Positions 49,447-59,702 are shown, numbered from the stretch's first letter. The stretch is DNA of 64,000 nucleotides from Nitrospirota bacterium (GCA_023475105.1 JAMCWJ010000076.1:4951-68950); one strand, 5' to 3'. Numbers and translations are program-made. Notes: a model not told the origin generated them from the sequence alone.

Positions 49447-51054
49447 ATGATTCGTAAATCCCTGAACTCCCTTGCCGGCAAGCTCATCATCGCAGTGGGG
49501 ACCTTGATGACCCTCGGCAGCATCATTTTCGGCTTCACCTTCATCCGCTATGAAGAAAAGATCATGATGAACAACCTGGTGAGTTACGCCTCTTCGACCG
49601 CGGACCTCGTCAAGAAAGGCGTCTCCTACGACATGCTATCCGGTCATCGCGAGGCGATAGCACAGACGATCGAAATCGTCGGTTCCGGCTCCGAGATCAG
49701 GGACATCGCGCTGTTCGACAAGCGGGGGAAGATCGTCTTCTCCTCGAAGAAATCCGAAGTGGGCAGGACCGTCGGAAAAGATTCTTCGACCTGCAGGATC
49801 TGCCATAAAGGAGACGGGAAACCCCTCATTGCGATCCCCGAATCGAAACACTGGGCCATTGTGACATCCCCCTCGGGAGTGAAGGTGATGAAACTCGTCA
49901 TGCCGATCTATAACGAGACTGCCTGCTTCTCGGCGTCCTGCCATTATCATCCGAAGGAAAAGAGGATCCTCGGGATTCTCGAAACGAACTTCAGCACCGC
50001 GACCGTAGACACGGCGATCAAACAGAACCGCATCGGCACCTTCCTCTTCGGCGGGCTGTTCATCATCATGATTTCTTTCTGTCTCTGCATCATCCTTTAT
50101 AAGTTCGTCTCGCGGCCGGTTTCCCTCCTCGATGAAGGCATGCACAAGCTCGCCCGCGGGCAACTCGACCATGTCATAGAGATCCATTCGAAGGACGAGA
50201 TGGGGCTCCTCGCTAATACCTTCAACACCATGGCCGGCGACATAAAAAGGTACCAGGACAATATGGAGAACTGGACAAAAGCCCTGGAGGAGGAGATCCA
50301 GAAGAAGACCTCGGAGATCATGAAGGCCCATGATCAGCTCATCAACGCAGAGAAGCTCGCGTCCCTCGGCAGGATGGCGGCGGGCGTCGCGCACGAACTG
50401 AACAGCCCCCTGACGGGGATCGTCACGTTTGCCCATCTCATGCTGAAAAGGATGCCGCCCGAGAACAGGCAGGACATCGAGGATCTCGAGGTGATTATCG
50501 AACAGGCGGAGAGGTGTTCAAAAATCGTCAAGGGGCTCCTCGGCTTTTCGCGGAAGACGAGCGCCGAGAAGGCCTTCGTAAACATCAATACCCTGACGGA
50601 AAACACGATAGCCATGGTGAGGAACCAGGCGAAGTTCCACAACATAAAATTCAACCTGAAATTCGACGACTCCGTCCCCGAGATACCGACCGATCCGAAC
50701 CAGCTGCAGCAGGTCTTCATCAACCTCTTCATTAATGCTGCGGATGCGATGAACGAAAGGGGCCAGGTCACCGTCGCGACGAGGCTGATATCCGATACCA
50801 CCGCCGGCAGGAAGTTTGTGGAGATAGAATTCAGCGACACGGGGCCGGGAATCCCCGAGGAGTTGCTCGGCCGGGTCTTCGAACCCTTCTTCACTACCAA
50901 GCCGGTCGGCAAGGGCACCGGCCTGGGCCTTGCGGTGAGCTACGGGATCATCAAGAAGCACGGGGGAAACATTTTTGTGAGAAGCGAAATCGGCAAGGGC
51001 GCGAGCTTTTTTGTGAGGCTCCCCATAGAGGATAATGCCGCAGCGGACTCTTAG
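49447..51054 (+). CDS. HAMP-domain sensor histidine kinase with a periplasmic domain carrying heme-c-type motifs
   Basis: Two TM segments flank a loop of about 165 aa containing CRICH (CxxCH) and CFSASCH (Cx4CH). HAMP, the H-box AAGVAHELNSPL, and the N/G1/G2 boxes of HATPase_c follow. Confidence 0.85.
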   Translation: MIRKSLNSLAGKLIIAVGTLMTLGSIIFGFTFIRYEEKIMMNNLVSYASSTADLVKKGVSYDMLSGHREAIAQTIEIVGSGSEIRDIALFDKRGKIVFSSKKSEVGRTVGKDSSTCRICHKGDGKPLIAIPESKHWAIVTSPSGVKVMKLVMPIYNETACFSASCHYHPKEKRILGILETNFSTATVDTAIKQNRIGTFLFGGLFIIMISFCLCIILYKFVSRPVSLLDEGMHKLARGQLDHVIEIHSKDEMGLLANTFNTMAGDIKRYQDNMENWTKALEEEIQKKTSEIMKAHDQLINAEKLASLGRMAAGVAHELNSPLTGIVTFAHLMLKRMPPENRQDIEDLEVIIEQAERCSKIVKGLLGFSRKTSAEKAFVNINTLTENTIAMVRNQAKFHNIKFNLKFDDSVPEIPTDPNQLQQVFINLFINAADAMNERGQVTVATRLISDTTAGRKFVEIEFSDTGPGIPEELLGRVFEPFFTTKPVGKGTGLGLAVSYGIIKKHGGNIFVRSEIGKGASFFVRLPIEDNAAADS

Positions 51055-51106: not shown

Positions 51107-51466
51107 ATGACCCTCGGGAGAGTAATCGAGATACTGGAAGCAGAGGTGGTCGTTGATGCGATCGACAGAGAAATGGAAATCCGCTCGATATGCAGTTCCG
51201 ATCTCATGAGCGACCTTCTTCACTTTTCGAGCAGACCGAAGTCCATACTCATCACGGGCCTCAACAACACACAGGCGATCAGGACGGCCGAAATTGCGGA
51301 CATAAAGGGGATCGTCTTCGTGCTCGACAAGAGGCCGGACAAGGAAACGGTCCGCATGGCGCGGGAGAAGGGCATCCCCCTGATGGTGACGAGACTGTCG
51401 AGGTTCACCGCCTGCGGCAGGCTCTATGCAGCGGGGCTCGGCAGCTGCACCGGGGAGGACCGGTGA
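51107..51466 (+). CDS. DRTGG domain protein
   Basis: The ATG at 51107 follows GGAAGGAG. The pattern …SDLMSDLL…ILITGLNNTQAIRTA…GIPL… is DRTGG-like. Confidence 0.65.
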   Translation: MTLGRVIEILEAEVVVDAIDREMEIRSICSSDLMSDLLHFSSRPKSILITGLNNTQAIRTAEIADIKGIVFVLDKRPDKETVRMAREKGIPLMVTRLSRFTACGRLYAAGLGSCTGEDR

Positions 51467-51906
51467 CCAGAAGGAACATCGAGGGAAGCTTCCATCTCAG
51501 CGGAGGGGATTTTACCAATGCGGGCGCGGCATCGAGTGAATTGAAATCAATCCTGACAAACCTCGGTATCAACCCGGAAATCGTCCGGCGGGCGGCCATC
51601 GCCACCTTCGAGGCGGAGATGAACGTGATCATCCACGCCGTCGCGGGAGTGATGTACTACCTCATCACCCAGGACACCATCAAGGTTGTCCTGAACGACA
51701 TGGGTCCCGGCATCCCCGACATCGACCGGGCGATGACGGAAGGCTATTCTACTGCGCCTGATTGGATACGGGAGATGGGCTGGGGCGCGGGAATGGGGCT
51801 GCCGAACATGAAGAAGAACTCCGATAGATTCAAACTAGACTCGGTTGTCGGAGAGGGGACAACGGTAGAGATCATCATACGGATCAAGGAGGGCAAAACA
51901 GAATGA
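51463..51906 (+). CDS. HATPase_c-only protein (RsbW/anti-sigma-factor-kinase-like)
   Basis: GTG at 51463 (GTGA overlap with the upstream stop) is preceded by GGGGAGGA. Boxes are EAEMNVIIHA (N), NDMGPGIPD (G1) and GAGMGLPN (G2). Confidence 0.7.
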   Translation: MTRRNIEGSFHLSGGDFTNAGAASSELKSILTNLGINPEIVRRAAIATFEAEMNVIIHAVAGVMYYLITQDTIKVVLNDMGPGIPDIDRAMTEGYSTAPDWIREMGWGAGMGLPNMKKNSDRFKLDSVVGEGTTVEIIIRIKEGKTE

Positions 51907-52238
51907 ACGTGCAAGAGATTGTCGACGCCTTGTCTCTGGAAGTGAAAACTGCAAAGGGAGACCTCAGCCGTACGGTTACCGGGTGCTATATCAGCGACCT
52001 GCTCTCCGACGTGATGGCGAACGCCAAAGAGGGCGAGATATGGATCACCCTCCAGACCCATCCGAACGTCGTGGCCGTGGCCTCCCTCAAGAACCTCGGA
52101 GGCATTATCGTGACAAACAGACGTAGCCCGGAAGCGGAGACGCTCCAGAAAGCCGAGAACGAAGGCGTCGTTATCGCGGTAAGCCCCCTCTCGACATTCG
52201 AGGTGGGAGGCATGCTTTACAAGATGCTGCGATGCTGA
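51903..52238 (+). CDS. DRTGG domain protein (paralogue of 51107..51466)
   Basis: ATGA overlap with the upstream stop. …SDLLSDVM…WITLQTHPNVVAVA…GVVI… follows the same pattern as the first DRTGG gene. Confidence 0.65.
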   Translation: MNVQEIVDALSLEVKTAKGDLSRTVTGCYISDLLSDVMANAKEGEIWITLQTHPNVVAVASLKNLGGIIVTNRRSPEAETLQKAENEGVVIAVSPLSTFEVGGMLYKMLRC

Positions 52239-52975
52239 AACCGTACCATGCCGACCTCCATATGCATACCTGCCTTTCTCCGTGCGCAGAAATCGATATG
52301 ACCCCGCGCGAAATAGTCGCAGCTGCCCTCAGGAGAGGGCTGCATCTCATCGCTGTTACAGACCACAACTCGGCCGAAAATGCGGAGGCAACGAGAAGAG
52401 CCGCCGAAGGGACGGGGCTTGTGGTCTTCGCGGGCATGGAAGTCACTTCGTCCGAGGAAGTGCATATCCTCGCGCTCTTCGAGTCACCTGACGGGGCCGG
52501 GGCGCTCCAGGACGTGGTGCACAGAAACCTTCCCGCCGGCGAGAACGATGAGAGGCTGTACGGGCACCAGATAATCGTGAACAAGGACAATGAAGTGATG
52601 GGCTTCGACAGGCGGCTGCTTATCGCGGCCACCGGACTCAATGCCCGTGCCCTTGTCGACCTGATCCGGTCGCTTGAGGGTGTCTCGATCGCAAGTCATG
52701 TCGACCGAGAGGCCTTCAGCGTTCTCTCACAGCTGGGATTCATCCCTGAAGACCTCAGATTCGACGCCGTCGAGCTTTCGCCGAAAGTGGGAAGGCAAGC
52801 GGCGGAACGGCTCTTCGGTGGTCTGAAGAGATTTCCCTGGGTCTCCTTTTCGGACGCCCACTACATCAGGGACATCGGCAAGAGAGTCACCACCTTCATG
52901 CTGGAGGAGGCGACCTTCGGAGAGATGAAGGCCGCGCTTGCCTCCGCAGGCGGCAGGGACATCTTCTGGGAGTGA
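52232..52975 (+). CDS. PHP-domain phosphoesterase
   Basis: HADLHMHTCLSPCA, VTDHNS and the GMEV… metal-ligand pattern of the PHP fold. It overlaps the upstream gene by 7 nt. Confidence 0.75.
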   Translation: MLKPYHADLHMHTCLSPCAEIDMTPREIVAAALRRGLHLIAVTDHNSAENAEATRRAAEGTGLVVFAGMEVTSSEEVHILALFESPDGAGALQDVVHRNLPAGENDERLYGHQIIVNKDNEVMGFDRRLLIAATGLNARALVDLIRSLEGVSIASHVDREAFSVLSQLGFIPEDLRFDAVELSPKVGRQAAERLFGGLKRFPWVSFSDAHYIRDIGKRVTTFMLEEATFGEMKAALASAGGRDIFWE

Positions 52976-52979
52976 CTCC

Positions 52980-53525
52980 ATGGAAGACCTTTCCCTGCAT
53001 ATCCTCGACATCGTCGAGAACTCCGTCGCAGCCGGAGCGACGACCGTGGAGATCACGGTCGAGGAAGATACGGGAAAGGATCTGCTCGGCCTGGAGATAA
53101 AAGACAACGGCAAGGGCATCGATAATGATATGATAGAGGCAGTTACCGACCCTTTCTTCACGACGAAAACAGTGAGGAGGGTGGGACTTGGCCTGCCGCT
53201 GCTGAAACAGGCGGCAGAGGGATGCGAGGGCACCTTCTCTCTCAGGTCGGACAAGGGAAAGGGCACGACGGTGTCAGTCGGCCTCAGACGCAGTCATATC
53301 GACAGAAAGCCGCTGGGTGACATGGCGGCTACGATGATAGTGCTGATAGCCGGCAATCCCGAAACTGACTTTGTCTTCTCGTACAGGAAGGATGAACTCA
53401 GTTACCGGCTGGATACCCGGGAAATCAGGGAAGAGCTGGCAGGGATACCGATCACTTCTCCCGAAGTGCTGAGGATAATACGGGAGGACATGGAGAGAGG
53501 GCTGAGCAAAGAGGCGGCAGGATGA
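52980..53525 (+). CDS. HATPase_c-only ATP-binding protein
   Basis: Start ATG at 52980. Boxes are LDIVENSVAAGA (N), KDNGKGI (G1) and VGLGLPL (G2). There is no HisKA/H-box. Confidence 0.7.
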   Translation: MEDLSLHILDIVENSVAAGATTVEITVEEDTGKDLLGLEIKDNGKGIDNDMIEAVTDPFFTTKTVRRVGLGLPLLKQAAEGCEGTFSLRSDKGKGTTVSVGLRRSHIDRKPLGDMAATMIVLIAGNPETDFVFSYRKDELSYRLDTREIREELAGIPITSPEVLRIIREDMERGLSKEAAG

Positions 53526-53911
53526 GCAAACCCCGGATACTGGTGATCGACGACGAAGAGATTGTGAGAATAAGTTGCAGGAAATGCCTCGCCCCCGAAG
53601 GATATGAAGTGGATCTTGCAGGGAGCGGCGCAGAGGGTATGCGCGTTCTGGCGGAAACCCCGTATGATCTTGTCCTGACCGACCTCAAGATGCCCGATAT
53701 GGACGGCATGGAATTCTTGATGAAGATAAAGGAGGCCAGGCCAGGCACAAAGGTGATCATGATAACCGGATACAGCACCGTGGAACATGCCGAAGAGGCG
53801 ATGCTGCTGGGTGCATGCAATTATGTAGAAAAACCCTTCACCCCCGATACTCTTATCAGGGCGGTAAGGGAAGCATTAGGGGAAGCTGGAAAGCGAAGGG
53901 ACGACGCCTAG
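53522..53911 (+). CDS. stand-alone response-regulator receiver (CheY-like)
   Basis: VIDDE, LVLTDLKMPDMDG, MITGY and EKPF show all phospho-acceptor pocket residues are present. There is no output domain. ATGA overlap with the upstream stop. Confidence 0.9.
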   Translation: MSKPRILVIDDEEIVRISCRKCLAPEGYEVDLAGSGAEGMRVLAETPYDLVLTDLKMPDMDGMEFLMKIKEARPGTKVIMITGYSTVEHAEEAMLLGACNYVEKPFTPDTLIRAVREALGEAGKRRDDA

Positions 53912-54029
53912 CGAACGCCGGAGAGTAGCGTTGTGCCGCAACTCTCACCGCCCTCCGTCCGTGAAGAATGCTTGATAAAGGAGAGTTTATTTATTTATTA
54001 TAATAGCAAGTTGCAAGGAGGGAAATTCA

Positions 54030-54893
54030 ATGGCGGGCAGAATACTTGTGGTAGATGACGAACCTGTCGTTGTCAAGAGCTGTGAGCGCATCCTGACTCC
54101 CGCAGGTTATACCGTGGACGGCGCCTCGAACGGCAACGAGGCCATCGGCAAGCTTGGCAAGGACGGCTATGACCTTGTGGTGACGGATCTCAGGATGCCT
54201 GACATCGACGGCCTTGAACTCATCCGGTGGATCAGAAACTCGAAGCCGGAAACGGGCGTTGTGGTGATTACGGGCTACCCGTCGCAGGAGAGCATACGGG
54301 AAGCCCTCGGCCTCCGGATTCTGGATTACCTGCCGAAACCTTTTTCCCCGGCCCTCCTTACCGAAATCGTCCAGCGCGCCATGGAATACAAGAAGGCGGG
54401 CAAGGTCACTGAGACCCCTCCTTCCGAGGAATACACCGAGGAGATGGCGAAAGAACTCGACGGAATCATCAGGAAATACAGAAAGAAGCCCGGGAGTCTG
54501 ATTCCCGTCCTCCAGGAAGCGCAGGAACTGATCGGCTACCTCCCCCCCTCCGTGCAGAGACACATCGCAAGAGGCTTGAAGGTGCCGGTAAGCGAAGTGC
54601 ACGGCGTGGTGTCGTTCTACTCCTTCTTCACGATGAAACCGAAGGGAAAGCACAACATACGCGTTTGTCTCGGCACGGCCTGCTACGTGAAGGGCGCTGA
54701 AGAGATCGTGAAAAAACTGAGCGAAGGCCTTGCGATCAGCGTCGGCGGCATCACTGAGGACAAGAACTTTTCTCTTGAAACCGTGCGGTGTCTCGGAGCA
54801 TGCGGACTCGCACCTGTTGTCGTAATAGACAAAGACACCCATGGTTCCATCAATGCCGTGAAGGTCCACGAACTCTTGAAAGATTACGAATAG
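54030..54893 (+). CDS. receiver domain fused to a NuoE/HydC-type 2Fe-2S subunit
   Basis: Residues 1-118 form an intact REC domain (VVDDE, VVTDLRMPDIDG, VITGY, PKPF). Residues ~135-287 are NuoE-like, with the 2Fe-2S ligands in CLGTAC and CLGACGLAP. Confidence 0.85.
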   Translation: MAGRILVVDDEPVVVKSCERILTPAGYTVDGASNGNEAIGKLGKDGYDLVVTDLRMPDIDGLELIRWIRNSKPETGVVVITGYPSQESIREALGLRILDYLPKPFSPALLTEIVQRAMEYKKAGKVTETPPSEEYTEEMAKELDGIIRKYRKKPGSLIPVLQEAQELIGYLPPSVQRHIARGLKVPVSEVHGVVSFYSFFTMKPKGKHNIRVCLGTACYVKGAEEIVKKLSEGLAISVGGITEDKNFSLETVRCLGACGLAPVVVIDKDTHGSINAVKVHELLKDYE

Positions 54894-54902
54894 GAGGCGG
54901 AT

Positions 54903-55286
54903 ATGGCCAGGCTGACGATAGAGGATCTGAAAAAAATAAAGGAAGATTACAAGGCGATGCTCACTCTGAGAGAGGGCGGATACAGGGCGAAGATCACCGT
55001 TCATATGGGCACTTGCGGCATTGCCGCGGGCGCGAGAAAAGTGATGGAGGCGCTTCTCGACGAGATAAACACGAGCAATGTAAAAGACGTGATCGTCACC
55101 ACGTCGGGATGCGCCGGGCTCTGCAGCAAGGAGCCGATGGCTACCGTCGAAATGATCAACGAAGCCCCCGTGAAATACGTCCAACTCAACGATGAGAAGA
55201 TACGAAAAATTTTCAAGGAACACGTCCTGAACGGCCGGATCGTCCAGGATTCCGCCCTTGTCATGGGAAGTGAAACGGCATACTGA
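54903..55286 (+). CDS. thioredoxin-like 2Fe-2S ferredoxin (HydD-like small subunit)
   Basis: The HMGTCGIAAGA … SGCAGLCSKEP pattern. AGGAGG lies upstream. Confidence 0.75.
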   Translation: MARLTIEDLKKIKEDYKAMLTLREGGYRAKITVHMGTCGIAAGARKVMEALLDEINTSNVKDVIVTTSGCAGLCSKEPMATVEMINEAPVKYVQLNDEKIRKIFKEHVLNGRIVQDSALVMGSETAY

Positions 55287-55339: not shown

Positions 55340-57223
55340 ATGGAAAAGTACCGCGCAAGTGTAATGCTGTGTGGAGGCACCGGTTGCATCGCAGGCGGCA
55401 GTTTGAAGGTCAAGAACGCTCTCGATGCGGAGCTTAAGAATAGAGGTCTCGAAAATGAAATAAACGTCGTTCTCACCGGCTGCAACGGCTTCTGTGCCGA
55501 AGGCCCTGTCATGACCGTCTACCCCGAAGACATTTTTTATGAAAAAGTTACGCTCAACGATGTGCCCCTGATCGTGGAAGAGCACTTTATCAAGGGAAGG
55601 CCGGTGGAGAAACTCATGTACAAGGAGCCGCTGAAGAAGCAGCCCATCCCGCTGATGAAGGAAATCCCCTTCTTCAGCCTCCAGGTGCTCAGGGCGCTGA
55701 GGAACAAGGGGCTCGTCGATGCCGAAAAGATCGAAGAATATATCGCGAGGGACGGATATCAGGCTGCGGCAAAGGCGTTGACGGAGATGACCCCGGCACA
55801 GATAATCGACGAACTGAAGAGGTCGGGGCTCCGGGGAAGAGGGGGCGCGGGCTTCCCCACGGGCATGAAATGGGAACTCTGCGCGCGGGTGCAGGGAGAC
55901 CAGAAGTTCATCCTCTGCAACGGTGACGAAGGGGACCCCGGCGCCTTCATGGACCGGAGTGTCATGGAGGCGGACCCCCATGTGGTCCTTGAGGGAATGA
56001 TAATCGGCGCAAAGGCGATCGGGGCGGACAAGGGGTATATCTATGTGAGGGCGGAATATCCTCTGGCAGTGCACCGTCTGCAACTTGCAATAAACCAGGC
56101 GAAAGAGAACGGACTTCTGGGGAATAATATCCTGGGCACGGGCTTTAACCTCGACATCGAGATATATCTGGGGGCGGGCGCCTTTGTCTGCGGTGAAGAG
56201 ACAGCGCTCATGCGTTCCATCGAAGGGAAACGGGGAATGCCAAGGCCGAGACCTCCCTTCCCCGCCCAGAAAGGACTGTGGGACAAGCCTTCGGTGCTCA
56301 ACAACGTCGAGACCTACGCGAACATTCCCCAGATAATCCTGAACGGCTCCGACTGGTACAGAAGCCTCGGGACGGAAAAATCGACAGGCACAAAGGTCTT
56401 CGCCCTGAGCGGTGCGATAAGCAACATAGGACTTATAGAGGTGCCGATGGGAATTCCCCTCAGGAAGATCATTTATGACATCGGCGGCGGGGTACCCAAG
56501 GGAAGAAAATTCAAGGCCGTTCAGCTCGGCGGGCCTTCCGGAGGGTGTATCCCGGAGCATCTTCTCGATACCCCGGTCACCTATGAAGACATCGTACAGA
56601 CGGGGGCCATCGTCGGTTCGGGCGGTATGGTCGTCATGAACGACCTGAACTGCATGGTGAGCGTCGCAAAATTCTTCCTCGAATTCACCGCGGAGGAATC
56701 CTGCGGCAAATGCCCTCCTTGCAGGATCGGCACCACGGTGATGCTTGATCTCCTGACGAAGATCACCGAGGGGAACGGGAAAGACGGGGACATAGAGCTC
56801 CTCGGCGATATGGCTCTCGACATCATCGCCACCTCCCTGTGCGGACTGGGGCAGACCGCCCCGAACCCCGTGCTGACGACGATAAAATACTTCAAGCAGG
56901 AGTATGAATCACACATCTATGAGAAATGGTGCAAGACCGGTGTCTGCAAAGACCTCTGCACGTTCTATATCGACGAAGAAAAGTGCAAGGCCTGCGGTGT
57001 ATGCAAAAGGGTCTGCCCCCAGAAAGCGGTTACCGGGGAAAAGAAGGTGCCCCACCACATCGATCAGTCTCTCTGCATCCAGTGCCGCTCCTGCTATGAG
57101 GCGTGCAAGTTCGACTCGGTGAAGATAGGCCCGCGGAGCATGAGGGATGAGCTGCTGAACCTCCCCGACCAAGAGGCGCTGAAAAACAAGCAGTTAGAGG
57201 CACTCGCGGGAAAGGGGGAATAG
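55340..57223 (+). CDS. NuoF-like NADH-binding flavoprotein with HydB/HndC-type extra domains
   Basis: N-terminal thioredoxin-like 2Fe-2S domain, FMN/NADH motifs GRGGAGFPTG and GDEGDPGAF, the N3 cluster ESCGKCPPCR, and two C-terminal 4Fe-4S motifs (CKACGVCKRVCP, CIQCRSCYEAC). Confidence 0.9.
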   Translation: MEKYRASVMLCGGTGCIAGGSLKVKNALDAELKNRGLENEINVVLTGCNGFCAEGPVMTVYPEDIFYEKVTLNDVPLIVEEHFIKGRPVEKLMYKEPLKKQPIPLMKEIPFFSLQVLRALRNKGLVDAEKIEEYIARDGYQAAAKALTEMTPAQIIDELKRSGLRGRGGAGFPTGMKWELCARVQGDQKFILCNGDEGDPGAFMDRSVMEADPHVVLEGMIIGAKAIGADKGYIYVRAEYPLAVHRLQLAINQAKENGLLGNNILGTGFNLDIEIYLGAGAFVCGEETALMRSIEGKRGMPRPRPPFPAQKGLWDKPSVLNNVETYANIPQIILNGSDWYRSLGTEKSTGTKVFALSGAISNIGLIEVPMGIPLRKIIYDIGGGVPKGRKFKAVQLGGPSGGCIPEHLLDTPVTYEDIVQTGAIVGSGGMVVMNDLNCMVSVAKFFLEFTAEESCGKCPPCRIGTTVMLDLLTKITEGNGKDGDIELLGDMALDIIATSLCGLGQTAPNPVLTTIKYFKQEYESHIYEKWCKTGVCKDLCTFYIDEEKCKACGVCKRVCPQKAVTGEKKVPHHIDQSLCIQCRSCYEACKFDSVKIGPRSMRDELLNLPDQEALKNKQLEALAGKGE

Positions 57224-57227
57224 GGAA

Positions 57228-59702
57228 ATGATAGAACTCAAGATAAACGGAAAAAACATACAGGTCGAGCAGGGCGCGACCCTGCTTCAGGCTGCGCTCG
57301 CAAACGGCATTTATATTCCGAACCTCTGCTACGACAAGAGACTCAGACCGTACGGCGGCTGCAGGCTCTGCATTGTAGAGCTGGAGGGACAGAAAAGGCT
57401 TTTTGCCGCCTGCTCCACCCCGGCGGAGAACGGAATGGCGGTCCGGACCGAGACCCCGAGACTTCATAAGGCGAGGAAGACGGTACTCGAGTTCCTGCTG
57501 ATCCATCATCCCCTGGATTGTCCGGTCTGCGACAAGGCAGGAGAATGCAAGCTCCAGGACCTCGCGTTCAAATACGGCCCGTCCGAGTCGAGGTTTGTCG
57601 GGGAAAGGAAGCACGAACCCGAGAGGATTGCCGCTCCGCTCGTCGAGAGAAACCCCAACAGGTGCATCCTGTGCGGAAAGTGCGTGAGGGTGTGCTATGA
57701 CCATCAGGGAGTCGGCGCGATCAGCCTGCTCGGCAGAGGGTTCAAATCGAAGATCAGCCCCGCCTTTGAGGAGACCCTCGATTGCGAGTTCTGCGGTCAG
57801 TGTATCGATGCCTGTCCCGTCGGCGCCCTCGGCAGCAAGCCTTACCGCTTCCGGTCAAGGGTCTGGTTCATGGACGAAAAGCCGATCACCTGTCCCTACT
57901 GCGGCTGCGGATGCACTACAAACCTGAGCCTCAGGGATGGAAGGATCATACGCGCCAGGGGAAGACAGGGTGTCGGGACGAACGACGGCGACCTTTGCAG
58001 CAGGGGAAGGTTCGGGTTCGACTATATCTACTCGGAAAACCGACTCACGACGCCCCTCGTCAGGAAAGAAGGGAAGCTCGTCGAGGCATCATGGGAAGAG
58101 GCCCTCGAGTTCGTCGGCAAGAGACTCGAAGAGATAAAGGAGATGAGCGGTCCTTCGGCGATCGGTGCGATCGGTTCCCAGAGATGCACGATGGAAGATA
58201 ATTACCTGTTGCAGCGCTTCATGCGGGAGGTCATCGGGACGGACAATGTCGACTCTGCTGCGCGCTTCGGTTACGCAAAGGCACAGAAGACCTTCGAAAA
58301 AGCCTTCGGTCTCGACCTCCAACCGATACAGTGGGACGCGCCTCTGAAAGCCGATTTCATCCTCGTGGTGGAGTCGGACATCACCTCGGCCGTGCCCGTA
58401 TGGGGACTGAACTTCATCAGCGCCAGAAACAACGGGGCGCAGCTTGTCGTCGCGGATGCGAAGGAGACGAAACTTGCGCGTAACAGTACTTCGTGGCTCC
58501 AGATAAAGCCCGGATCAGGGGTCGCCCTTCTTAACGGGATTGCAAAAGTGATCCTCGATGAGAAGCTGTACGACCTCGATGAGGAAGTCCCCATGGAAGA
58601 CAAGAACCTCACCATCCCGAATTATGAGGCCATGGTGAGGGGGCTCGCCGAGTTTACCCCGGCTGCGGTTTCACAGCTCACCGGTCTTTCCGAAAACGAG
58701 ATTGTTCACCTCGCACGGTCTTACGCTGCCGCAAAGAGCAGACTCCTGTCTCTCACCTCGAGCGCCTCGGAGAACACAAAAGGCCTGAATACGCTCCTGG
58801 CGGCCGCAAATCTGGCGATCCTCATGGGTGACGGGCCCGACACGCTGCAGATACCCGCGGAGTTCTCGAATACGCTCGGCATGTGGGAAGTCGGGGTGAG
58901 GCCGCTTTCCGGGGGAAAAGACGCGTACGAAATGCTGTATAAACCCGGGACGATGAAGGCCCTCTATATGATGGGCGAGAACCCTCTGGTCACGTGCAAG
59001 GACGTTTCGGTGGTCGAAAAGACCCTAAGAGGCCTCGAACTGTTTATCGTGCAGGACATCATCCTTACTGACACCGCAAAACTTGCGGACGTGGTGCTGC
59101 CCGCCAGCAGTTGGGGAGAAAAGGAAGGCATCTTTATGTCTGCCACGGGGGACATTCATGAGATCCCCAAGCTTCTCACTGAAACCGGCCAGTCGATCCC
59201 CGACTGGAAGATCTTCAGGAATCTTGCGAGGGCGATGAACAAGGACCTCGGGGTGACAGATCTGGCAGAGATCAGGGGCGCGATCATGGACCTGATCGCC
59301 GCGGCGCCTGCCGGCGAAGAGGTCAGGAGTTTCACCCCCGTGGAATTCAAGGTCTCCGAGAGGCCCGACGAAGAGTATCCGATGCTTCTGGTCACGGCGA
59401 ATCTCCTGCAGCACTCGGGTGCCCTGTCGATACTTTCGAAAAACCTGGGCTCTGTGGTCTCGGATGCGTATCTGCAGATCAATCCCGGGGATGCAAAAAA
59501 ATACAAGATTCACGACGAAGGATATGTGAAGGTGACATCGAGAAGGGGAGAGGTGTATCTGAAGGCGATGGTCAGCGAAGAAATGCCGGAGGGCGCGGTG
59601 TTTGCCCCGACGCATTTCCCCCATGCCAACGTCAATGCCCTGACCCATCCTCCGCTGAACGGTGAGGCACCGACGGACGCGATCAAGATCCAGCTCGCTT
59701 GA
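57228..59702 (+). CDS. NuoG-like Fe-S / molybdopterin-fold subunit lacking the catalytic Cys/Sec
   Basis: 2Fe-2S (CYDKRLRPYGGCRLC), HxxxCxxCxxxxxC (HHPLDCPVCDKAGEC), 4Fe-4S motifs and CPYCGCGC, then a molybdopterin-oxidoreductase fold. The position equivalent to the FDH Cys/Sec-His reads NVDSAARFGYAKAQ. Confidence 0.85.
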   Translation: MIELKINGKNIQVEQGATLLQAALANGIYIPNLCYDKRLRPYGGCRLCIVELEGQKRLFAACSTPAENGMAVRTETPRLHKARKTVLEFLLIHHPLDCPVCDKAGECKLQDLAFKYGPSESRFVGERKHEPERIAAPLVERNPNRCILCGKCVRVCYDHQGVGAISLLGRGFKSKISPAFEETLDCEFCGQCIDACPVGALGSKPYRFRSRVWFMDEKPITCPYCGCGCTTNLSLRDGRIIRARGRQGVGTNDGDLCSRGRFGFDYIYSENRLTTPLVRKEGKLVEASWEEALEFVGKRLEEIKEMSGPSAIGAIGSQRCTMEDNYLLQRFMREVIGTDNVDSAARFGYAKAQKTFEKAFGLDLQPIQWDAPLKADFILVVESDITSAVPVWGLNFISARNNGAQLVVADAKETKLARNSTSWLQIKPGSGVALLNGIAKVILDEKLYDLDEEVPMEDKNLTIPNYEAMVRGLAEFTPAAVSQLTGLSENEIVHLARSYAAAKSRLLSLTSSASENTKGLNTLLAAANLAILMGDGPDTLQIPAEFSNTLGMWEVGVRPLSGGKDAYEMLYKPGTMKALYMMGENPLVTCKDVSVVEKTLRGLELFIVQDIILTDTAKLADVVLPASSWGEKEGIFMSATGDIHEIPKLLTETGQSIPDWKIFRNLARAMNKDLGVTDLAEIRGAIMDLIAAAPAGEEVRSFTPVEFKVSERPDEEYPMLLVTANLLQHSGALSILSKNLGSVVSDAYLQINPGDAKKYKIHDEGYVKVTSRRGEVYLKAMVSEEMPEGAVFAPTHFPHANVNALTHPPLNGEAPTDAIKIQLA

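Follow-up and report, generated by a model that had tools for sequence, protein, structure and literature searches.

The six genes at positions 51107–53911 of the window, a 64,000-nucleotide stretch of Nitrospirota DNA, are best interpreted, with moderate confidence, as the Nitrospirota form of a conserved five-gene regulatory cassette that is accessory to NuoEF-type redox enzymes and acts post-translationally. The cassette combines a fixed gene order and adjacency to NuoEF genes with invariant ATP- and metal-binding residues and a pair of paralogous DRTGG proteins. Every functional step proposed below is read from homology and gene context. A literature search found no paper that treats the cassette as a unit and no experiment on any cassette protein, and the cassette is a candidate for how NuoEF-type redox enzymes are switched in many phyla of anaerobes.

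Organization of the Cassette and Its Flanking Genes

All six genes lie on the plus strand. The first three encode DRT1, a single-domain DRTGG protein of 119 residues (51107–51466; Pfam DRTGG, 5e-8), HATa, a SpoIIAB-like GHKL ATPase and putative serine kinase of 147 residues with a GTG start (51463–51906; HATPase_c_2, 9e-7), and DRT2, a second DRTGG protein of 111 residues (51903–52238; DRTGG, 2e-5). These are followed by the genes for a predicted PHP-family metal-dependent phosphoesterase of 247 residues (52232–52975; Pfam PHP, 2e-10), for HATb, which consists of a histidine-kinase-type CA domain and a C-terminal α/β domain (181 residues; 52980–53525; HATPase_c, 7e-17), and for REC, a stand-alone receiver of 129 residues (53522–53911; Response_reg, 1e-31). 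Direct reading of the sequence bears out all the start/stop junctions given in the first-pass annotation: the HATa start overlaps the DRT1 stop in GTGA at 51463, HATa and DRT2 are joined by ATGA at 51903, DRT2 and PHP overlap by 7 nt (52232–52238), PHP and HATb are separated by a 4-nt gap (52976–52979), and the REC start overlaps the HATb stop in ATGA at 53522. A Shine–Dalgarno-like purine run precedes every start, within the gene upstream, and the starts of PHP and HATb match the N-termini of their homologues (MLKxFxADLH and MEDLSLHILD, respectively). ORF calls and Pfam profile searches likewise confirm the six reading frames, their tight coupling and their domains, all six of which were recovered, that of DRT2 just under the cut-off. 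The cassette is present in a single copy in the source genome.

The gene for a membrane sensor histidine kinase (49447–51054, plus strand), in which Pfam detects HAMP (5e-11), HisKA (1e-13) and HATPase_c (4e-25) domains, ends 52 nt 5′ of the cassette. On the other side, a gap of 118 nt, which contains a sigma-70-like promoter candidate (TTGATA-18-TATTAT; 53972–54001, plus strand) that is a consensus match only (10/12; three sites found in the region versus 2.2 expected), precedes the gene for a REC::NuoE fusion, a BfuC/HydC-like 2Fe-2S subunit that carries a receiver at its N-terminus (54030–54893, plus strand; Response_reg, 2.5e-29; 2Fe-2S_thioredx, 5e-50). Next on the same strand are the genes for a small thioredoxin-like 2Fe-2S protein of the HydD/BfuD type, called Fd2 (54903–55286; 2Fe-2S_thioredx, 3e-5), for a NuoF/HydB-like flavoprotein (55340–57223; TIGR01959 nuoF, 3e-148) and for an 824-residue NuoG/formate-dehydrogenase-alpha-like subunit (57228–59702; TIGR01973 NuoG, 3e-134, and Fdh-alpha, 8e-131, both below the cut-off). 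The flavoprotein has an N-terminal 2Fe-2S domain and a C-terminal 2x[4Fe-4S] domain, with ferredoxin-type matches at both ends, and an Fd2-type gene comes after NuoE in most cassette loci. The neighborhood also includes nuoA–D, and the NuoEF enzyme is encoded divergently from a nuo operon of 11 subunits from which nuoEFG are missing. Since the NuoG-like large subunit is apparently non-catalytic and the divergent nuo operon lacks nuoEFG, the cassette in the source genome probably targets the electron-input module of complex I.

The upstream kinase has a HisKA domain, and both receivers retain the acceptor residues DD, D54, T and K (DD10–11, D54, T82 and K104 in the stand-alone REC, which shares 46% identity with the REC::NuoE receiver). 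This kinase is likely to be the phosphodonor for both receivers. The input in the source genome would then be a two-component system in which the membrane kinase phosphorylates both receivers, the sixth-gene receiver signaling to the cassette while that of REC::NuoE acts on the enzyme directly.

Distribution of the Cassette

The PHP protein was used as the bait for a survey of species-representative genomes, which contain at least 595 relatives, and the neighborhoods of the best 80 loci were examined. The strict order DRT1–HATa–DRT2–PHP–HATb is found in 55 of these 80 loci, and the inferred gene spacings have medians of 1–14 nt in the surveyed loci. Since this order recurs across many phyla, it is far beyond chance. 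The 80 loci span more than 12 phyla, with Nitrospirota, Desulfobacterota, Acidobacteriota, Aminicenantes, Clostridia, Spirochaetota, Cloacimonadota, Ignavibacteria, Bacteroidota and Dehalococcoidia among the lineages represented. Therefore, the gene set is not the local oddity for which it had been taken, and it is REC that is lineage-specific.

Among 43 well-flanked loci, a NuoF-like gene is present in 35 and a NuoE-like gene in 37. The window has the whole of the operational definition of the cassette, namely the five-gene order with adjoining NuoE, 2Fe-2S and NuoF genes. Eight of the 43 loci lack a full-length NuoF-like gene (>400 aa) within 9 kb, indicating that NuoF adjacency is not obligatory; the cassette lies upstream of an IcmF-like mutase in one locus without such a gene (L063), and another locus (L058) has a shorter NuoF-like ORF of 349 aa together with NuoE on the opposite strand. 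The catalytic subunit encoded downstream varies from an [FeFe] hydrogenase (L037) to an Fdh/NuoG-like protein (the window, L001 and L077) and an HdrA-like protein (L025). The cassette nearly always accompanies the NuoE/2Fe-2S/NuoF flavoprotein core of Bfu/HydABC-type NADH–ferredoxin oxidoreductases, whichever catalytic subunit is served.

Different lineages plug differing sensors into the common five-gene scaffold, and many cassettes have no recognizable sensor domain. A CBS pair is fused to HATa in L022 and L026, such CBS::HATa fusions occurring in at least seven lineages, and a HydS-like hydrogenase gene lies between HATa and DRT2 in L041. Of 21 Nitrospirota loci, 14 have a kinase gene 5′ of the cassette; none of 28 Desulfobacterota loci has one, and outside Nitrospirota it was seen only in L039 (Zixibacteria) and L038 (an unclassified MAG). 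Nine of 16 Nitrospirota loci, compared with 0 of 24 Desulfobacterota loci, have a REC gene next after HATb, and the REC::NuoE fusion is found in 8 of 21 Nitrospirota loci. The kinase, the sixth-gene REC and REC::NuoE are thus almost only Nitrospirota additions.

HATa, the DRTGG Proteins and the PHP Protein

HATa matches HATPase_c_2 with 29.4 bits (cut-off 27.4), and its best solved relatives in the PDB are SpoIIAB, anti-sigma F factor (1e-11). It also matches TIGR01925 spoIIAB (5e-14) with 52 bits, under the equivalog cut-off of 135, indicating that HATa is a relative of SpoIIAB and not an orthologue. The catalytic Glu, the Mg-binding Asn and the G1 and G2 boxes (E50/E52/N54, DxGxG at 79–83 and GxGxGMG at 106–112) are invariant in 26 sequences, so that the predicted HATa protein has the ATP-site residues of a HATPase_c_2 serine kinase. 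The first-pass annotation had likened both HATPases to RsbW and SpoIIAB; the likeness holds for HATa but not for HATb, which has a KinB-type CA domain (9e-15) with an F-box and a C-terminal domain.

DRT1 belongs to the DRTGG family (PF07085) by profile (33.1 bits; cut-off 25.2), and a DRTGG match is found in all 24 aligned homologues. DRT2 scores 24.7 bits, just below the cut-off, and is assigned to the family by hhalign against DRT1 (probability 99.8%, E 5e-30) and by its AF2 model (pLDDT 96.7), for which Foldseek returns AF1212 (TM 0.82) and the DRTGG domain of CBS-pyrophosphatase (TM 0.74). As judged from the model, the fold of DRT2 is a bona fide DRTGG fold, and the profile alignment marks the two DRTGG proteins as paralogues. 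Of 301 Nitrospirota genomes, 87 encode a member of the DRT2 family. The invariant residues are L10, D32, S35, D36, L38, T50, T60, G104 and L106 in DRT1 and D32, S35, D36, W47, T49, Q51, H53 and N55 in DRT2; an invariant D-L-x-S-D motif is common to both proteins, and DRT2 carries its own invariant WxTxQxHxN patch.

The PHP protein has the complete metal-ligand set of the PHP superfamily (HxH, D/H, E, H, H and DxH), with H10, H12, D44, H45, E70, H78, H156, D208 and H210 invariant in 80 homologues, and two further invariant cysteines, C14 and C18, in HxHTCLSPC. Its nearest solved relatives are nucleic-acid and nucleotide phosphoesterases, namely EndoQ (2e-8), pAp phosphatases and RNase AM (7ug9), with 3e0f and 2yb1 also among the closest entries, and not protein phosphatases.

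A literal partner switch, in which HATa phosphorylates DRT1 and/or DRT2, PHP dephosphorylates them and the unphosphorylated DRTGG protein or HATa binds and gates NuoEF instead of a sigma factor, is possible, though on balance we doubt it. The relationship of HATa to SpoIIAB and its intact ATP site favor such a switch, as do the order DRT1–HATa–DRT2, which parallels STAS–kinase–target with start/stop overlaps, and the invariant Ser of the paralogous DRTGG proteins, placed at a helix N-cap in the DRT2 model. The source genome has a separate canonical GAF-PP2C/HATPase_c_2/STAS module with its own kinase on another contig, suggesting that the cassette is a distinct system. However, AF1212, an unrelated DRTGG protein outside the cassette context, has a Ser at the aligned position, and so the motif Ser may belong to the fold and not mark a phosphorylation site. 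PHP-family protein phosphatases such as CpsB/YwqE exist, but the PHP protein of the cassette shows no similarity to them at E ≤ 1e-3, and its nearest relatives do not support the opposing-phosphatase role first suggested for it. Moreover, a literal switch leaves HATb without a role, and the locus lacks the other canonical parts. Pfam detects neither a STAS nor a sigma domain in the six cassette proteins, no STAS domain in the 24 DRT1 homologues (E ≤ 1) and no PP2C phosphatase at the locus, where PHP is the sole esterase, and the Foldseek matches of DRT2 are DRTGG, HPrK-N and Mur-ligase N domains, with SpoIIAA not among them. The absence of STAS and sigma partners, as originally claimed, therefore survives the search for hidden domains.

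HATb and Other Possible Roles of the Cassette

The CA domain of HATb comprises residues 1–103 and is followed by a conserved C-terminal α/β domain. The best PDB sequence match is KinB, with an F-box DPFxTTK, and MutL (8e-7) and, weakly, BCKDK (5e-5) are also matched. H7, D10, E13, N14, DxGxG, GxG, D108, P111 and G113 are invariant. HATb also has an ENSxxAGA motif, and its D108-R/x-K/x-P111 loop is invariant. Pfam finds no HisKA match in HATb, which lacks a DHp domain with its H-box; the motif SHIDRKPLG, which follows the CA domain, superficially resembles the H-box sequence SHELRTPL and was rejected, as hhalign against a DHp alignment gave a probability of 1%. Sequence profiles favor HK CA domains over GHL ATPases, whereas Foldseek with the full-length AF2 model (pLDDT 90) returns N-terminal fragments of PMS2, MutL and TopoVI-B with TMq of only 0.46–0.58, so that modeled full-length HATb resembles a mini-GHL ATPase about as closely as it does a kinase.

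A phosphorylation-independent sensor, in which the DRTGG proteins (and the CBS pair where there is one) have adenine nucleotides, Ap4A or NAD(H) as ligands and the assembly regulates NuoEF allosterically, the GHKL proteins serve as ATP-gated clamps and PHP hydrolyzes pAp, Ap4A or nanoRNA, is rather unlikely. DRTGG is part of the adenine-nucleotide/Ap4A regulatory insert of CBS-pyrophosphatases (bioRxiv 10.1101/2020.04.07.028951), and the CBS::HATa fusions, the pAp phosphatases and RNase AM among the relatives of PHP, and the GHL-like form of HATb, in which a conserved D-R-K-P loop follows the Bergerat fold, are consistent with such a sensor. In the DRT2 model, the invariant residues map to the ends of strands and the N-termini of helices, resembling a ligand pocket. 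However, stand-alone DRTGG proteins have no known ligand, the kinase/ATPase catalytic Glu is retained in HATa, and the sequence of HATb, F-box included, is that of a CA domain of the HK type.

It is improbable that the cassette proteins are assembly or maturation factors that aid FMN or Fe-S insertion or the oligomerization of NuoE, Fd2 and NuoF. The cassette does lie inside the structural operon, as NuoE–cassette–Fd2–NuoF, in some lineages such as those of L041, L060 and L076; the Acetomicrobium mobile 'hisK' is co-encoded yet missing from the purified holoenzyme, as a chaperone would be (PMC9304861); and HATb has GHL/Hsp90-superfamily ATPase features. The lineage-specific links to CBS, HydS-like, REC and upstream kinase modules point instead to signaling, and no SpoIIAB-like protein is known as a chaperone. 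Furthermore, to our knowledge, the literature on Bfu/HydABC enzymes makes no mention of the cassette genes, and in our reading these enzymes are described without them. A nucleic-acid module, with PHP as an EndoQ-like nuclease and a MutL-like ATPase processing DNA or the mRNA of the operon, would fit EndoQ as the best solved relative of PHP and the top Foldseek matches of HATb, but it is very improbable, because the EndoQ match is limited to the PHP core, neither the Zn-ribbon nor the C-terminal DNA-binding part of EndoQ is present in PHP (247 aa versus 400 aa), HATb has HK-type sequence motifs, and the strict redox-enzyme linkage is left unexplained.

The NuoEF-accessory regulatory cassette that we favor would process signals and determine post-translationally how active NuoEF is or what its assembly state is. 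HATa and HATb would perform ATP-dependent steps, PHP would perform a reversal or second-messenger step, and DRT1 and DRT2 would be ligand-binding or switchable partner proteins. We propose only tentatively the more specific and rather doubtful reading that the cassette is an undescribed partner-switch-like device, with DRTGG in place of STAS, PHP in place of PP2C and a second GHKL ATPase added, which gates NuoE/NuoF, the NADH/ferredoxin input module of complex-I-like and electron-bifurcating enzymes, post-translationally across many anaerobic phyla and in Nitrospirota has merged with a His–Asp phosphorelay ending in a receiver on NuoE.

Comparison with Known Systems

The cassette resembles the SpoIIAA/SpoIIAB/SpoIIE and RsbV/RsbW/RsbU systems in that a small SpoIIAB-like GHKL protein with an intact ATP site is coupled to small single-domain partners in a partner–kinase–partner order, with a phosphoesterase gene alongside. 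In contrast to these systems, the partners are DRTGG and not STAS proteins, the esterase is PHP and not PP2C, a sigma factor is absent, an extra HK-type ATPase is present, and what is presumably controlled is an enzyme complex and not transcription.

The gene neighborhood of HydS, upstream of HydABC, is also similar. Thermoanaerobacter mathranii TamHydS is a group D (M2e) [FeFe] hydrogenase that has an HK-like ATPase as its neighbor and has been put forward as a sensor (PMC8163306), and the hydrogenase operon of Halanaerobium hydrogeniformans (Halsa_1862–1871) has an identical accessory gene list (PMC4237134). As in the window, an anti-sigma-type kinase, PHP and an HK-like ATPase are found with NuoE, 2Fe-2S and NuoF proteins, the accessory set precedes the NuoEF-type enzyme, and a HydS-containing cassette was recovered in our survey (L041). 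The window has no HydS or hydrogenase, however; the sensor slot is taken by the membrane histidine kinase and receivers, and the large subunit is the NuoG-like, apparently non-catalytic one. In NiFe-HydABCSL of A. mobile, a HATb-type 'hisK' and a small 2Fe-2S 'hydD' lie between the structural genes; both are named only in a figure legend and are reported to be outside the purified holoenzyme (Schut et al. 2022, PMC9304861), and a structural-subunit role of the HATb-type gene is argued against. That paper does not discuss the paired DRTGG, SpoIIAB-like and PHP genes or the conservation of the unit.

The CBS-DRTGG-CBS insert of family II pyrophosphatase (PDB 3L2B/3L31) shares the DRTGG fold (TM 0.74) and a context of adenine-nucleotide regulation, and a CBS pair accompanies the cassette in several lineages; DRTGG is internal in the insert, whereas the cassette has two free-standing paralogues with cassette-specific invariant residues. 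Finally, by analogy only, since homology with the cassette ends at the Bergerat fold, the kinases and phosphatases of the pyruvate and branched-chain ketoacid dehydrogenases (BCKDK being weakly matched by HATb) bring GHKL serine kinases and a dedicated phosphatase together on one large NAD-linked redox complex, which they switch according to the energy and redox state.

Organization of the cassette locus

Five genes encoding a DRTGG protein (DRT1), a SpoIIAB-like HATPase (HATa), a second DRTGG protein (DRT2), a PHP phosphoesterase and a second HATPase (HATb) are conserved as a unit, are linked to the NuoEF module, retain intact catalytic residues and are joined by sensors that differ from lineage to lineage. 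In the window, they occupy positions 51107-51466 (DRT1), 51463-51906 (HATa, with a GTG start), 51903-52238 (DRT2), 52232-52975 (PHP) and 52980-53525 (HATb), and a receiver gene, REC (53522-53911), follows as the sixth gene. All six open reading frames and the junctions between them, which are GTGA, ATGA, a 7-nt overlap, a 4-nt gap and ATGA in gene order, are present in the sequence exactly as the first-pass annotation described them. A purine-rich Shine-Dalgarno-like run precedes each start within the preceding gene, and the chosen starts agree with the N-termini of homologues. Pfam profile searches have also confirmed the six domain assignments made by that annotation (DRTGG, HATPase_c_2/HATPase_c, DRTGG, PHP, HATPase_c and Response_reg), with only DRT2 falling marginally below the threshold. 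NCBIfam has neither a DRT1 nor a DRT2 model and lacks equivalogs for HATa, PHP and HATb. The source genome has a single copy of the cassette.

A gap of 52 nt separates the cassette from the upstream gene of a complete HAMP-HisKA-HATPase kinase (49447-51054). Downstream, REC is followed by a 118-nt gap and then by the genes for REC::NuoE, a receiver fused to NuoE (54030-54893), a small 2Fe-2S protein, a HydB-type NuoF and a NuoG/Fdh-like protein. This AT-rich gap contains a candidate sigma-70-like promoter, TTGATA-18-TATTAT (53972-54001), suggesting that there may be two transcription units, one made of the kinase, the cassette and REC and the other running from REC::NuoE to NuoG. No sigma-54 promoter is found upstream of the kinase or of the cassette, and a scan of the 64-kb window shows no Rex-box-like site near the cassette. 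Control of the cassette by Rex has been rejected: the sole two matches with three mismatches in 64 kb, at ~12.7 and ~13.2 kb, are no more than expected by chance.

Conservation of the cassette and its association with NuoEF

A search of one genome per species with an alignment of PHP homologues as bait has identified at least 595 relatives, and the best 80 loci (L numbers) were fetched and annotated by phmmer with the window's proteins as queries. Genes in these loci are open reading frames picked by homology, and taxa are named as in the MAG records. The strict DRT1–HATa–DRT2–PHP–HATb order is found in 55 of these best 80 loci; those without it are mostly truncated at contig ends or contain weak DRT1 matches. 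The median inferred spacing between cassette genes is 1 to 14 nt. Fusions between cassette genes have been considered and dismissed, the long open reading frames examined being start-codon over-extensions and the real exceptions CBS::HATa fusions. The DRT2 family is present in 87 of the 301 Nitrospirota genomes sampled and, at genus level, in 48 of 129.

Among the loci with enough flank, a NuoF-like gene is present in 35 of 43 and a NuoE-like gene in 37 of 43. The typical arrangement is cassette–NuoE–2Fe2S–NuoF–X, where X is a variable large or catalytic subunit, and at times the cassette separates NuoE from the 2Fe-2S gene. The identity of X differs between loci: L037 has a true [FeFe] hydrogenase, the window and its close relatives have an Fdh/NuoG-like protein, and L025, L040 and L064 have a 2Fe2S-Fer4-HdrA-like flavoprotein (585-594 aa; 2Fe2S-Fer4-Pyr_redox_2). 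The cassette therefore tracks the NuoE/NuoF flavoprotein core and not any one catalytic activity. A minority of cassettes, such as those of L045 and L038, stand alone.

The orphan cassette of a Thermodesulfobacteriota MAG (L063:11968-14296) is followed by a TPR gene on the opposite strand and then by an IcmF-like B12-binding/MeaB/mutase fusion in place of NuoEF. The NuoF-like subunit of Syntrophales/Smithellaceae (L034, L037, L043, L048, L055-L057, L068, L071, L072 and L080) is ~1018 aa long, roughly 400 aa longer than that of the window. NuoE of Fidelibacterota and Cloacimonadota carries an N-terminal HdrA-like FAD/4Fe-4S fragment (split HdrA; L073:11483-12373, L015:376-1269 and L019:3-785), and the matching large subunit is found in other loci (L025, L040 and L064).

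Properties of the cassette proteins

Both HATPases had been described as RsbW/SpoIIAB-like, which holds for HATa and not for HATb. HATa is closest to SpoIIAB (1e-11 against PDB; 5e-14 against TIGR01925, which is below the cut-off of that model), and the catalytic Glu, the Mg-binding Asn and the G1 (DxGxG) and G2 (GxGxGMG) boxes are invariant in 26 homologues. The profile matches of HATb are the CA domains of histidine kinases (KinB 9e-15, WalK and ZraS), and HATb bears the histidine-kinase-type signature DPFxTTK...GLGL. Residues 104-181 of HATb form an additional conserved domain, and N-terminal fragments of PMS2, MutL and TopoVI-B match ~180 columns of its AF2 model (pLDDT 90), compared with ~105 for histidine-kinase CA domains. 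HATb is therefore an orphan CA domain or else a mini ATPase of the GHL type.

A near-invariant S-H-I-D-R-K-P-L-G loop (residues 105-113; 53292-53318) connects the Bergerat fold of HATb to its C-terminal domain, and the His of this loop is replaced in one of 25 HATb sequences. The loop resembles the H-box SHELRTPL by eye, but homology to a permuted mini histidine kinase has been rejected: when the C-terminal region is compared by hhalign with a DHp alignment of 19 kinases, the probability is 1%. The loop could be a gamma-phosphate 'switch' loop of the GHL type.

DRT1 and DRT2 are paralogous (hhalign 99.8%). The AF2 model of DRT2 (pLDDT 96.7) has a genuine DRTGG fold, with TM-scores of 0.82 to AF1212, a DRTGG protein outside the cassette context, 0.74 to the DRTGG domain of CBS-pyrophosphatase and 0.71 to the HPr-kinase N-domain. 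An invariant D-L-x-S-D motif is common to DRT1 and DRT2, and its Ser forms a helix N-cap in the DRT2 model. Since this Ser aligns with a Ser of AF1212, it may be a feature of the fold; within the motif, just the flanking Asp residues are specific to the cassette. PHP keeps the full set of PHP metal ligands and has two invariant Cys residues directly behind HxH, C14 and C18 (HTCLSPC; 52271-52285), where related PHP enzymes have S..SDG. As judged from the sequence, the Cys residues may be a redox-sensitive or an alternative metal ligand pair. REC has all the acceptor residues and shows 46% identity to the receiver fused to NuoE.

Lineage-specific sensors

Lineages in which a CBS pair is found at the N-terminus of HATa include Cloacimonadota, Spirochaetota, Dehalococcoidia and Fidelibacterota. 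A protein with ferredoxin, H-cluster and PF04060 domains is encoded between HATa and DRT2 in Stahlbacteria and WOR-3 and has the same architecture as the M2e/group D putative sensory hydrogenase. This HydS-type insertion matches a gene arrangement that has been listed for Halanaerobium (PMC4237134) and noted for TamHydS of Thermoanaerobacter (PMC8163306). Three features are nearly exclusive to Nitrospirota: a kinase upstream of the cassette, a stand-alone REC behind HATb and the fusion REC::NuoE. Outside this phylum, REC and REC::NuoE occur in one MAG with the label Deferribacteres, and an upstream kinase occurs in L038/L039. REC comes after HATb in 9 of 16 Nitrospirota loci, compared with 0 of 24 Desulfobacterota loci. 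Therefore, the six genes are present as first annotated, but the unit is a five-gene core with a phylum-specific receiver. REC is kept with the cassette in loci where NuoEF is non-adjacent (L011, L012, L031, L036, L044 and L058). The sensor slot in the window is occupied by a two-component system, and this two-component-wired variant, with the kinase, REC as the sixth gene and REC::NuoE, is what the window contributes.

Cassette loci of Desulfobacterales encode a small 2Fe-2S (HydD/Fd2-like) protein with a fused cyclic-nucleotide-binding domain (L033:2094-2846, L049:5900-6649 and L074:10720-11463), a further example of a sensor domain joined to a small NuoEF-module subunit. The domain is confirmed by Pfam for L033 only (cNMP_binding 2e-8), the N-terminal regions of L049 and L074 having been compared by eye.

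Possible role of the cassette in control of the NuoEF module

Electron-bifurcating HydABC/Bfu enzymes and EFG-less complex I are central in the energy conservation of fermenters, syntrophs, acetogens and sulfate reducers, and to our knowledge almost nothing is known about their post-translational control. The five-gene set, found beside the NuoEF core in more than a dozen phyla with its catalytic residues invariant, is a concrete and testable candidate for such control. A literature search on the cassette found gene lists or figure legends only and no study of it, the accessory genes being mere items in operon lists and figure legends (PMC4237134, PMC8163306 and PMC9304861). None of the papers mentioning DRTGG in the searched literature does so in the cassette context.

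It is fairly probable that the cassette is a regulatory device with the NuoEF module as its post-translational target. HATa and HATb would carry out ATP-dependent steps, the DRTGG paralogues would be switchable or ligand-binding partners, and PHP would be a resetting esterase, possibly made redox-sensitive by its Cys pair. DRTGG has been studied solely as part of an adenine-nucleotide/Ap4A regulatory insert (bioRxiv 10.1101/2020.04.07.028951). In one Bfu enzyme that has been purified, the product of the HATb-type gene 'hisK' is not among the holoenzyme subunits (PMC9304861). The membrane kinase of the source genome would phosphorylate two receivers: REC, which would provide input to the cassette, and that of REC::NuoE, which would act on the enzyme directly. 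The Nitrospirota version is especially informative because it ties the cassette both to a kinase of the classical type and to a NuoE-fused receiver; this points to NuoE as the point of control, and phosphotransfer gives an experimental entry into the system. The NuoG/Fdh-like large subunit (57228-59702) reads ...DSAARFGYAKA... by eye, and ARFGY stands where formate dehydrogenase H (FdhH) presumably has ...ARVUHGPS..., so that the large subunit seems to lack the Sec/Cys-His catalytic pair and to be non-catalytic. Because of this apparent lack of catalysis and because the locus is divergent from a nuoABCD... operon without nuoEFG, the regulated object is probably the electron-input module of complex I.

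A literal phospho-switch, following the partner-switch logic of the first-pass annotation, is a possible but tentative alternative. The kinase, the DRT1–HATa–DRT2 order and the D-L-x-S-D motif shared by both DRTGG proteins, whose Ser caps a helix in the DRT2 model, are consistent with it. However, this Ser aligns with one in AF1212, STAS, PP2C and sigma partners are missing, and HATb has no place in the scheme. The proposal that PHP could be the phosphoesterase opposing the kinase is weakened, as PHP resembles nucleotide or nucleic-acid esterases, its nearest solved relatives being EndoQ, pAp phosphatases and RNase AM, and not PHP-type protein phosphatases. A nucleotide or redox sensor working free of phosphorylation is rather unlikely, and a role of the cassette as an assembly factor is improbable. 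A role directed at nucleic acids, the substrates of some esterases that PHP resembles, is very improbable.

Comparison with SpoIIAB/RsbW systems

Only the kinase of the four defining parts of the RsbW/SpoIIAB system is present at the locus. No STAS domain is detected in the six proteins by Pfam, in 24 DRT1 homologues by Pfam at E<=1 or in DRT2 by Foldseek, and neither PP2C nor a sigma factor is encoded in the locus. These searches exclude a hidden STAS or sigma domain, in agreement with the first reading of the locus as one without such partners. The source genome encodes a canonical trio of GAF-PP2C (SpoIIE domain), HATPase_c_2 kinase and STAS on contig C20 (L094:699-3241, minus strand), adjoining an MlaE permease gene. 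Since this textbook partner-switch trio is encoded on another contig, the cassette is a separate system and not a degenerate copy. STAS, PP2C and a sigma factor belong to SpoIIAB/RsbW systems and the cassette is built without all three, but its gene order around HATa resembles their antagonist–kinase–target order.
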